Shown here in pieces: positions 46,401 to 47,992 of a stretch of DNA of 64,000 nt; within the stretch, counting starts at the first letter, position 1, and every line of letters starts with the position of its first letter. Position numbers and translations under genes: made by a program. The stretch comes from Candidatus Aenigmatarchaeota archaeon (lineage in GTDB: Archaea; Aenigmatarchaeota; Aenigmatarchaeia; QMZP01; QMZT01). Under the pieces are notes generated by a model, which worked only from the letters and a program-made list of their open reading frames with translations, did not search any database and was not told where the DNA came from. The stretch is taken from NCBI GenBank assembly GCA_043808015.1, contig JAZDFI010000008.1, forward strand, positions 13,271-77,270, written 5' to 3'.

Positions 46401-47992
46401 ATTCCGGCTGATCCTGCCGGAGGTCACTGCTATTCGGATATGACTAAGCCATGCAAGTAATGGGTTAAACCATTGCGTAAAGCTCAGTAACACGTAGTTA
46501 ACCTGCCCTTGGGCCTGCCACAATCTCGGGAAACTGAGGCTAAAGACAGATGGGCAATAAAATCTGGAATGATTTATTGCTGAACTAAGGATGGGACTGC
46601 GGAAGATTAGCTTGTTGTCAGGATAAAAACCTGACAAGGCGATAATCTTTACGGGCCTTGAGAGAGGTAGCCCGGAGATGGATTCTGAGACAACAATCCA
46701 GGTCCTACGGGACGCAGCAGGCGCGAAACTTTCCCAATGCACGAAAGTGTGAGGAAGATATCTGGAGTGCTCTCTCTTAGGAGGGGGCTTTTCTGGAGTC
46801 CAGACCGCTTCAGGAATAAGGGGTGGGTAAGACGGGTGCCAGCCGCCGCGGTAATACCCGCGCCCCGAGTGGTGACCGCGATTATTGGGCTTAAAGCGTT
46901 CGTAGCCGGTTTTGTAAGTCCCCAGTGAAATCGATTGGCAAACCAATCGGCTTGCTGAGGATACTGCATTACTTGGGACCGGGAGAGGTTAGAGGTACTC
47001 CAGGGGTAAGGGTAAAATCTTATAATCCTTGGGGGACCACCTGTGGCGAAGGCGTCTAACTAGAACGGATCCGACGGTGAGGGACGAAAGCTAGGGGAGC
47101 GAACCGGATTAGATAACCGGGTAGTCCTAGCTGTAAACGATGCCTACTAGACATCGGAAATCTCAAGGGGGTTTTCGGAGTCGGAGGGAAACCGTTAAGT
47201 AGGCCGCCTGGGGAGTACGGTCGCAAGGCTGAAACTTAAGGGAATTGGCGGGGGAGCACACAAGGGGTGGAGGCTGCGGTTCAATTCGACTCAACGCGGG
47301 GAACCTTACCAGAGGCGACAGCAGTATGAAGGTCAGACTTAAGATCTTACCAGACGCGCTGAGAAGTAGTGCATGGCCGTCGTCAGTTCGTGCCGTGAGG
47401 TGTCGTCTTAAGTGACGTAACGAACAAGACCCACGCTTCATGTTGCTAACCAATTCTATTGGTGCACTCATGGAGGACCGCTGACGATAAGTCCGAGGAA
47501 GGTGTGGTCGACGGCAGGTCCGTATGCCCTGAATCCTCTGGGATACACGCGGCCTACAATGGATGGTACAATGAGATGCGACACCGAAAGGTGAAGCTAA
47601 TCTCGAAAACCATTCCCAGTTCAGATCGAGGGTTGCAACTCACCCTCGTGAAGCCGAAATCCCTAGTAGTCGCTGGTTAGCATCTAGCGGCGAATAAGTT
47701 CCTGCTCCTTGCACACACTGCCCGTCAAGCCATCCGAGTGAAGACTTGGTGAGGTTTTTCTTTCGAGAAAGATCGAACCAAATTTTTGCAAGGAGGGCTA
47801 AGTCGTAAAGTGACGAGATGGGCAATTTGAGGGATTCCACAAGAATCCTTATGACAGCTAGAAGTGTGCGTCTTAAACGAAAGAATCATGCCTATGGTAT
47901 GGATTCGATCTACGCTACTCTAGTGTAAAATATCATCTCGTCACCCGATAAACAAGGTAACCGTACGGGAACGTGCGGTTGGATCACCTCCT
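46401..47992 (+). rRNA. 16S rRNA (highly divergent), containing a ~144-nt insertion near the 3' end
   Basis: 5' ATTCCGGCTGATCCTGCCGGAGG. Also GTGCCAGCCGCCGCGGTAATAC, ATTAGATAACCGGGTAGTCC and GCACACACTGCCCGTCA. 3' end GGATCACCTCCT. Confidence 0.9.
47809..47952 (+). other. ORF-less insertion (probable archaeal intron) in 16S between AAGTCGTAA and CAAGGTAACC
   Basis: The conserved AAGTCGTAACAAGGTA is split. The insert is bounded by an 11-bp inverted repeat, GTGACGAGATG...CATCTCGTCAC. Boundaries are good to about 2 nt. Confidence 0.6.

Follow-up and report, generated by a model that had tools for sequence, protein, structure and literature searches.

What is the 144-nucleotide (nt) segment that parts the universal GUCGUAA from CAAGGUA in the archaeal 16S ribosomal RNA (rRNA) gene considered here: an intron, or a piece of the mature rRNA? 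The segment occupies positions 47809–47952 of a 64,000-nt stretch of contig JAZDFI010000008.1 from a Candidatus Aenigmatarchaeota archaeon (hereafter the window, in whose coordinates positions are given), and an initial inspection of its letters (the sequence-only reading) had preferred an endonuclease-spliced intron to an expansion segment. That preference is supported by a covarying, relaxed bulge–helix–bulge (BHB) at the junction and by the universal sequence that the predicted cuts restore, as well as by members with LAGLIDADG reading frames at the same site, by presence/absence variation and by a nested, probably RNA-derived 16S sequence devoid of the insert. The segment is very probably an archaeal rRNA intron without an open reading frame (ORF), of the relaxed BHB type and removed by the archaeal splicing endonuclease. 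It lies in the only rRNA operon of its host, which belongs to Candidatus Aenigmatarchaeota (DPANN).

The sequence reads ...GGGCUAAGUCGUAA up to the insert, AGUGACGAGAUG...CAUCUCGUCACCCGAUAAA from one end of it to the other and CAAGGUAACCGUACGGGAACGUGCGGUUGGAUCACCUCCU beyond. The Rfam archaeal small-subunit (SSU) model runs in register from 46401 through AAGUCGUAA and is then off, helix 45 (h45) and the 3' end being regained at 47957–47981; since the model loses register and h45 reappears downstream, 144 nt are inserted between its positions GUAA and CAAGG, as the sequence-only reading had described. Owing to A runs at the junctions, the boundaries slide by up to 2 nt (47807–47950, 47808–47951 or 47809–47952) with an identical spliced product, and the 16S gene after splicing measures 1449 nt. 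The intron also misleads annotation: the Rfam gathering-threshold match sets the 3' end of the 16S gene at 47839, inside the intron and 154 nt too early. In E. coli numbering, by way of primer 1492R (1492–1510), the site is approximately 1499/1500, after A1499/A1500; it thus follows the decoding adenines A1492/A1493 by 6–7 nt and adjoins U1498 and C1501.

The perfect 11-base-pair (bp) helix said to close the insert is present as an inverted repeat at 47810–47820/47934–47944; by our estimate, about 0.005 such repeats are expected by chance in a 211-nt stretch, and the minimum-free-energy fold of 47790–47975 has z = −2.6 relative to shuffled sequences. The alleged lack of coding potential is equally borne out: an ORF of 36 codons is all that fits within the insert, there is no homing endonuclease ORF in the window copy, and, between homologous inserts, length differences are not multiples of 3 and substitutions are paired so as to preserve structure.

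Such homologues were reached by two routes. The prolyl-tRNA synthetase (ProRS) gene adjoining the rRNA operon has its closest homologues in entries labelled Candidatus Aenigmarchaeota/Aenigmatarchaeota at NCBI; a protein identical to it is not on record, and homologues (77–85% identical) were used instead to sample ProRS–rRNA synteny, a procedure blind to intron status. All six synteny relatives that reach the 3' end of 16S (L001, L002/L003, L227, L229, L231/L232 and L233) have an insert at the exact site, of 110–133 nt. The second route was a scan of 185,579 species genomes for the pattern CGAYNNACAAGGTARCCGTA, which gave about 60 matches at 16S 3' ends, nearly all archaeal and mostly in Aenigmatarchaeota, the other hosts being Micrarchaeota, Woesearchaeota, Nanoarchaeota, Hadarchaeota and unclassified archaea. 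Only the seven synteny-derived lineages are free of the bias of this pattern, which fixes CGAY. The nearest relative, L088 (JAPLVC010000006.1, a GTDB genome assembled from the metagenome of Lac Pavin sediment and assigned to Aenigmatarchaeota), has a 16S gene 99.1% identical to that of the window, interrupted at the same site by a homologous insert of 141 nt. The occurrence of this insert in an independent assembly rules out a chimeric assembly, the artefact that the sequence-only reading had named as a possible refutation, and the comparison of related 16S genes that it had proposed finds homologous inserts at the identical site in some 35 further genomes, mostly of Aenigmatarchaeota.

Three families of insert share the site: family A, window-like, with 35 unique members of 59–797 nt; family B, comprising hairpins of 29–43 nt and versions of about 575 nt; and family C, of 95–137 nt. 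The smallest, the mini-introns of L016 (29 nt), L011 and L092 (32 nt), L071 (38 nt) and L014 (43 nt), consist of little beyond the intron strand of the central BHB helix H and a 9–11-bp hairpin. Genomic alleles without an intron occur in more distant Aenigmarchaeota, for example L208 (70-kb contig, 83% identity). In L017 and L103, GGGCUAAG is separated from (A)UCGUAA by a further insertion, of about 30 nt, a few nt upstream of the main site (GGGCTAAG-AATCTTCTAAGGTTTCTTAGCAGGTTAGCA-ATCGTAA), so that these genes hold two adjacent insertions in the 1492–1500 stretch. Elsewhere in 16S, L229, L051, L030, L208, L005, L046, L231, L018 and L104 have from one to five extra insertions, at window-equivalent positions of about 130, 340, 615–650, 715, 834, 1000 and 1282, while the window 16S has only the one.

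The sequence-only reading had found no textbook 3-4-3 BHB by eye, reporting bulges of 4 nt and 1 nt. Folding of the junction, which it had recommended, gives with RNAfold the helices H and h'; the departure from the textbook form stands, in that the outer helix h is missing, while the supposed 4-nt and 1-nt bulges resolve into a canonical 3-nt bulge beside one A.C mismatch. The 5' half is canonical (4-bp H, bulge UAA, h'), and on the other side AAA follows H without an outer helix: no pairing can form between GGGCUAA of exon 1 and CAAGGUA of exon 2. GGCU/AGCC was considered as the outer helix and set aside; relatives could form it, but AACC in the window disrupts it, and a loop of 9 nt would be left over. 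As judged from sequence and covariation, the junction is best described as a relaxed BHB of the HBh'/BHL type. The exon strand of H (GUCG, 47802–47805) corresponds to E. coli G1494–G1497, 1 nt after A1492/A1493.

Covariation among relatives supports each of these elements. In an alignment of 32 distinct family A junctions (alignment A1), 98.4% of cells in H are paired, exon GUCG facing intron CGAU or CGAC, and CGAU is found in seven of the seven lineages sampled independently of the CGAY pattern. The 12-bp P1 (h') has 95.1% of cells paired and changes on both sides at nine of its 12 pairs; none of 500 shuffles reaches any of the observed measures, and slid registers pair at 21–45%. RNAalifold, applied to ten closer relatives, independently recovers H, the 3-nt bulge, P1 and the internal helices P2 and P3, whereas an alternative pairing of 47843–51 with 47898–906 is without covariation support. 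G.U pairs are common in P1 (U.G in 13 and G.U in 15 of the 32 sequences at individual pairs, for example), from which it follows that the constraint acts on sense-strand RNA and not on inverted repeats in DNA. At the first pair of P1, 30 of the 32 homologues have A-U or G-C, and only the window and L088 have A.C; L231, with an otherwise identical P1 helix, has A-U there, and the A.C of the window is thus a derived mismatch.

In a BHB, the splicing endonuclease cleaves each bulge 3' to its second base, 2 nt past the end of either H strand. By this rule, the 5' cut is predicted between A47807 and A47808 (UA|A) and the 3' cut between A47951 and A47952 (AA|A), which joins GUCGUA to ACAAGG, the universal sequence, restores GUCGUAACAAGG exactly and gives TTTGCAAGGAGGGCTAAGTCGTAACAAGGTAACCGTACGG as the predicted exon–exon junction of the spliced 16S. 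The same GUCGUA+ACAAGG junction is displayed by L206 and L209, two metagenomic 16S sequences that have no insert. L206 (OBAT01044545.1, 1413 nt), found among others when metagenome records were scanned for an intron-less junction with the exon sequence of the window itself, reads GTCGTAACAAGGTA; it is 96.4% identical to the 16S of both the window and L088 and 93–94% identical to those of L001, L002 and L231, and in a neighbour-joining tree it is sister to the window and L088, inside a clade whose ten genomic sequences all bear the intron. L209 (OBEP01) branches between the intron-bearing L038 and that core clade. The OBEP01 records are the full-length SSU sequences of Karst et al., obtained from reverse-transcribed rRNA, and OBAT01 has the same format, trimming and domain mix. 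Insertions of any kind are found in none of the six OBAT/OBEP sequences of the tree, while nine of its 17 genomic 16S sequences have extra ones at other sites (one-sided Fisher P ~0.03, the extra insertions not having been selected for). By phylogenetic bracketing, these intron-less and probably RNA-derived relatives support splicing with ligation.

Some of the longer versions carry homing endonuclease genes. ORFs of the LAGLIDADG_3 family occur in L008 and L102 (about 575 nt) and in L044 (797 nt), with Pfam E values of 1e-10 to 1e-13, and the ORFs of L039 and L064 (about 575 nt) closely resemble that of L008, an assignment by ORF similarity only. L044 is a family A member with the termini and the kink-turn of the window intron and with the LAGLIDADG ORF in place of P3. 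Elsewhere in the window, two further LAGLIDADG_3 ORFs (8799–9545, +, E 4e-13; 20538–21422, −, E 3e-9) sit in islands of low GC (0.40 and 0.37, against about 0.50 elsewhere) and are possibly free-standing or intron-borne homing endonuclease genes.

The following course of events would account for these observations. In the precursor, the CGAU that precedes the AAA run of the intron would pair with exon G1494–G1497 (GUCG) to form the 4-bp helix H, so that the 5' splice site would fall within the UA|A bulge of 3 nt that parts H from the closing helix P1/h' of 12–13 bp, and the 3' splice site 2 nt beyond the other strand of H (AA|A). EndA, the tRNA/rRNA splicing endonuclease, would cut both sites, and RtcB would ligate the exons to GUCGUAACAAGG and probably circularize the intron, the interior of which would form a three-way junction of P1, P2 and P3 with a kink-turn signature, a predicted L7Ae site, on the P2 arm. 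Because H would sequester the 3' strand of the top of helix 44 (h44), the decoding site could not form before the intron is removed. The structure would be under purifying selection, most simply since mis-splicing of the sole 16S gene would be lethal. This copy would descend from a mobile family targeting the site with LAGLIDADG homing endonucleases, having lost its ORF or never had one, and would now be inherited vertically in its clade. EndA cutting, RtcB ligation, the positions of the cuts, L7Ae binding and the decoding-site checkpoint are the parts of this scheme that we infer.

That the mature 16S rRNA should instead retain the 144 nt as an extra, lineage-specific domain where h44 meets h45 is very unlikely. 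Conservation of the core (P1, GGGCAAUUUGA, P2 and UAUGA) across many lineages would suit such an expansion segment, as would the frequency of kink-turns in rRNA, but the site lies between A1499/A1500 and C1501, on the universally conserved decoding and P-site strand of textbook 16S, and the end of the intron pairs with the h44 strand GUCG and would block it. Moreover, anything from 29 to 797 nt is found at this one site, in some cases with a LAGLIDADG ORF, there are intron-less alleles within the phylum, and the probably RNA-derived sequences of close relatives are without the insert. Excision without re-ligation, in the manner of the intervening sequences of bacterial 23S, appears just as improbable; it would yield a fragmented 16S with a separate 3' piece of about 42 nt, comprising h45 and the anti-Shine–Dalgarno sequence. 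Fragmented rRNAs are known in other lineages, and the junction offers one complete bulge–helix unit only, but L206 and L209 are continuous across the junction into exon 2. The products of archaeal EndA are, besides, normally ligated by RtcB (PMC4496867), and the predicted cuts give the canonical sequence exactly.

Least credible of all, to the point of being negligible, is a DNA-level feature or artefact, either an error of assembly or a miniature transposon ending in inverted repeats. More than 35 independent assemblies have the insert at this same site, and what could pass for transposon ends (the perfect 11-bp repeat and TAAA at both junctions) does not behave as such: the repeat arms are not terminal, lying 1 nt and 7–8 nt from the junctions, they change compensatorily with many G.U pairs and so pair only as sense-strand RNA, and excision leaves the exact universal sequence with no target duplication. 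A self-splicing group I intron is scarcely more plausible and was rejected, no match to a group I core and no omega-G having been found: 144 nt are too short for such a core, relatives are as small as 29 nt, the closing architecture is H, bulge and h' rather than P1/P10, and with the boundary at U1498 the terminal base is A. Rfam searches with permissive thresholds returned no family for the window insert and no group I match at E<=1, and the loci of ten relatives, including members of 572–797 nt, contain no Rfam group I or small nucleolar RNA (snoRNA) family at E<=0.1. The possibility had to be weighed in view of three archaeal group I introns of the IB4 type at SSU/1498, within 2 nt of the window site, in Micrarchaeota and Nanohaloarchaeota (Nawrocki et al. 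2018, PMC6125680); with group I introns there in other DPANN phyla, the site is a hot spot for two intron classes.

Several points weigh against a spliced BHB intron and temper our confidence in it. That CGAY does not vary among the 35 members is not counted as evidence because the search pattern fixes it. Without the outer helix h, cleavage at the 3' site needs an endonuclease of relaxed specificity, the HBh'/BHL form being one that requires a broad-specificity enzyme (PMC5829648), and Pfam scans of 50 window ORFs identified no gene for EndA, RtcB, L7Ae, fibrillarin or Nop5. The conserved core could equally suit a structural element retained in the rRNA. The origin of OBAT01, and hence of L206, from RNA is probable, judging from its format and its kinship with OBEP01, and splicing in the window organism is something that we infer from bracketing by relatives rather than from its own RNA. 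As to the endonuclease, the window holds one archaeal rRNA operon, composed according to Rfam of 16S (46401 to about 47993), a spacer tRNA-Ala and 23S (48693–51828), and the tRNA-Ala, about 130 nt downstream, contains two non-canonical introns of about 31 nt (D-loop) and 29 nt (T-loop), the former with H = AGCG/CGCU and bulges GUA and UGA by manual parsing; the host must therefore have a splicing endonuclease that accepts non-canonical sites.

The interior of the intron is conserved as well. After P1, family A members share a layout of the joiner GGCAAnnU, G-A, the covarying hairpin P2, three bases ending in U, and G-A, followed by a mostly non-Watson–Crick pair (U.C, U.U or U.A) and then by a covarying Watson–Crick pair. 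The columns GGGCAAnnUGA are conserved in 33 sequences, the scheme GA-stem-NNU-GA fits 34 of the 35 members, the kink-turn position L3 is U in 34 of 34, and 4b.4n is Watson–Crick in 27 of 34, covarying between U-A, A-U and C-G. In the window, P2 is formed by 47831–37 and 47843–49, U47828-G-A47830 precedes it, G47853-A47854 are assigned at the sequence level to tandem sheared pairs with G47829-A47830, and P3 (47857–47924) completes the three-way junction. In its sequence, the core accordingly carries a kink-turn signature like that of box C/D RNAs, P2 serving as C stem, and a binding site for L7Ae is predicted at it. For P2, RNAalifold finds seven pairs with compensatory changes at six, the version in L088 being GAGACUC/GAGUCUU. 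The exons of the window and L088 are 99.1% identical, yet P2 and the tip of P3 differ by compensatory changes, which implies selection on the RNA fold. Such selection is most simply explained by the need to keep the only 16S gene competent for splicing; the intron core may have another function besides.

In a family A subgroup (L006, L010, L015, L043, L073, L096 and L104), a box C (GAUGAAG), a spacer with GGCUUGAC at its end and a box D (CUGA) lie within P2. Members of family C (L019, L037, L040, L053, L058, L063, L065, L072, L081 and L086) are ordered P1, C-like box, AAUGGCUUGACU, CUGA, 4 nt, AUGAUGA, GUAGGAGGUGAG, UUGA, P1, the canonical archaeal C/D'/C'/D layout with spacers of about 12 nt; for three of them (L058, L072 and L086) no Rfam family was found. 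The guide GGCUUGAC, followed by CUGA, is complementary to the 5' strand of host h44, GUCAAGCC, the fifth base upstream of D' pairing with A1408 as the predicted target, and in L037 the guide (GGUUUGAC) and the organism's own 16S (GUCAAACC) have changed together in a compensatory manner. A second guide, GGAGGUGA with UUGA, is complementary to the 3'-terminal UCACCUCC / UCACCUCCU, the anti-Shine–Dalgarno strand, with C1535 as the predicted target. Introns at this site in relatives, JAWBPV010000029.1 and CAZIJH010000003.1 being examples, thus appear, from their motifs and complementarity, to contain box C/D guide RNAs; since H ties up G1494–G1497, the 5' strand of h44 would be free for the guide in the precursor. 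We came across no account in the literature of rRNA introns with box C/D guides in them, and a review lists only tRNA introns as hosts.

The window copy is different. It has no antisense of >=9 nt to its own 16S or 23S above chance and no CUGA at the required spacing, and the guide motifs of its relatives have only chance-level matches in the window, one of which, at 8319, lies in ordinary sequence. A role of the window copy as a box C/D guide is thereby ruled out; with no antisense beyond chance, this intron is not itself a guide RNA. Tentatively, and with more doubt than conviction, we put forward the idea that the intron might be a working, L7Ae-bound ribonucleoprotein module within pre-16S, holding the top of h44 open until late, through its pairing with G1494–G1497, as a splicing-gated checkpoint of 30S maturation, with the guides of its relatives (to the freed h44 strand GUCAAGCC, A1408, and the anti-Shine–Dalgarno strand UCACCUCCU, C1535) making use of this open state to direct 2'-O-methylation of the host rRNA in cis and the window copy being a guide-less form that keeps the kink-turn scaffold.

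Table 1. Positions of the interrupted 16S gene, of the structural elements of its predicted intron and of the neighbouring tRNA gene in the window.
Feature	Position	Strand	Basis and remarks
16S exon 1	46401..47807	+	Ends ...GGGCUAAGUCGUA; Rfam SSU_rRNA_archaea, 1344 bits; aligned at the 3' end as far as AAGUCGUAA
Intron by the BHB cutting rule, 144 nt	47808..47951	+	Equivalent to 47809–47952 of the sequence-only reading
16S exon 2	47952..47993	+	ACAAGGUA, then h45, then the 3' end GGAUCACCUCCU; h45 match 47957–47981
Central BHB helix H, 5' strand, exon GUCG	47802..47805	+	Pairs with intron CGAU 47946–47949; RNAfold and RNAalifold
Helix H, 3' strand, intron CGAU	47946..47949	+	RNAfold, RNAalifold, covariation
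5' bulge UAA, 3 nt	47806..47808	+	UAA invariant in alignment A1
P1 (h'), 5' strand	47809..47821	+	A.C mismatch, 11 perfect bp, G.U; pairs with 47933–47945
P1 (h'), 3' strand	47933..47945	+	Inverted repeat, covariation, RNAalifold
3' 'bulge' AAA	47950..47952	+	Read from the sequence; outer helix h absent, loop-like side
Joiner GCAAUUUGA	47822..47830	+	Last residues U-G-A: putative non-bulged strand of the kink-turn signature
P2 hairpin, GGGAUUC / CACAA loop / GAAUCCU	47831..47849	+	Putative C stem of the kink-turn; RNAfold
UAU bulge (47850–52), G-A (47853–54), C and A (3b, 4b)	47850..47856	+	Covariation
P3, long irregular hairpin, variable arm	47857..47924	+	RNAfold; GCUAG/CUAGU pairs conserved in subfamily
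Spacer tRNA-Ala(UGC), G3.U70, two non-canonical introns	48084..48216	+	Rfam tRNA match with 31-nt D-loop insertion, and manual parse

Other features of the window touch on RNA processing. The two introns of the spacer tRNA-Ala hold complementary 8-mers (GCCUGCGG, 48118–25; CCGCAGGC, 48187–94), and the tRNA-Ala of L001 and L002 has different introns at the same places. A second tRNA (54658–54766, +), with anticodon CUU by our own reading, is interrupted at the canonical position 37/38 by an intron of about 38 nt; ARAGORN reports no tRNA in the window, though Rfam finds these two intron-containing ones, and is not usable as a control. The 16S leader GAAGUAGGAGA...GCGAGAU (from 46334–46365) is complementary to the trailer AUCUCGC...UCUCCUACUUC (48000–48029), a likely 16S processing stem the internal loops of which are not textbook BHBs. 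An ORF at 16789–17601 (+) matches KsgA/Dim1-type rRNA adenine dimethylase (RrnaAD, E 7e-35), an enzyme that modifies h45, just 3' of the intron site; its co-location with the intron-bearing 16S is probably a coincidence. In 23S, a hairpin-like 19-nt insertion, AUGCCCAUUCAUUGGGCUG (51322–51340, +), is absent from the 90.6%-identical 23S of L001.

The closest known counterparts are the BHB introns in 16S of Thermoproteales, Desulfurococcales and Aigarchaeota (PMC4496867), which likewise interrupt conserved stretches targeted by primers, have an exon–intron bulge–helix motif, exist at one locus in ORF-less, hairpin-only and LAGLIDADG versions, vary in presence and absence, and are presumed to be processed by EndA and RtcB. 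They have been catalogued at 13 loci, from 374 to 1391, none of them near 1499 (Jay & Inskeep 2015, PMC4496867), and in contrast to those thermophilic TACK hosts, the window host is a mesophile-like DPANN archaeon whose locus, at approximately 1499/1500, lies outside the catalogue; its intron family is, furthermore, without the outer helix h, has a conserved kink-turn core and is fixed in ORF-less form in a whole clade. The group I (IB4) introns at SSU/1498 share the 16S stretch to within 2 nt, the DPANN hosts and, in some, homing endonuclease ORFs, but they fit group I covariance models and measure 293–743 nt (PMC6125680), whereas the window intron and the relatives tested have H, bulge and h'. 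Resemblance to the pre-tRNA-Trp intron of Euryarchaeota (d'Orval et al. 2001; Singh et al. 2004; reviewed in PMC7994747) lies in the combination of a BHB-type intron with kink-turn (box C/D) elements and, in relatives of the window intron (family C and the L010 subgroup), in guides complementary to their own host RNA; here, however, the host RNA is 16S, and the window copy has one kink-turn signature only and no guide. The rRNA insertions of candidate phyla radiation (CPR)/Patescibacteria are also found in ultra-small symbionts with reduced genomes, at conserved sites and in some cases with homing endonucleases, but their hosts are bacterial, and the insertions are of group I, group II or unknown type with no BHB/EndA pathway (PMC11270868). 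Our search of the literature turned up no BHB intron described for this locus or for Aenigmarchaeota; what is new is the insertion site at the decoding centre, the host group, and the conserved kink-turn core with relatives that carry guides and endonucleases.

In practical terms, the intron splits the site of primer 1492R (1492–1510), so that primers spanning it cannot fully anneal to the interrupted gene, and automated annotation will mis-end 16S genes split in this way. The few known intron sites of archaeal 16S gain a locus at the decoding centre, as well as a host phylum. Archaeal rRNA introns are usually seen as vehicles of homing endonucleases or as decaying remnants, and a kink-turn core kept without an ORF is unusual in this respect. 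The intron-borne guides, if true, would be the rRNA counterpart of the guide in the tRNA-Trp intron and would offer a handle on how DPANN archaea order the folding, modification and splicing of their rRNA.

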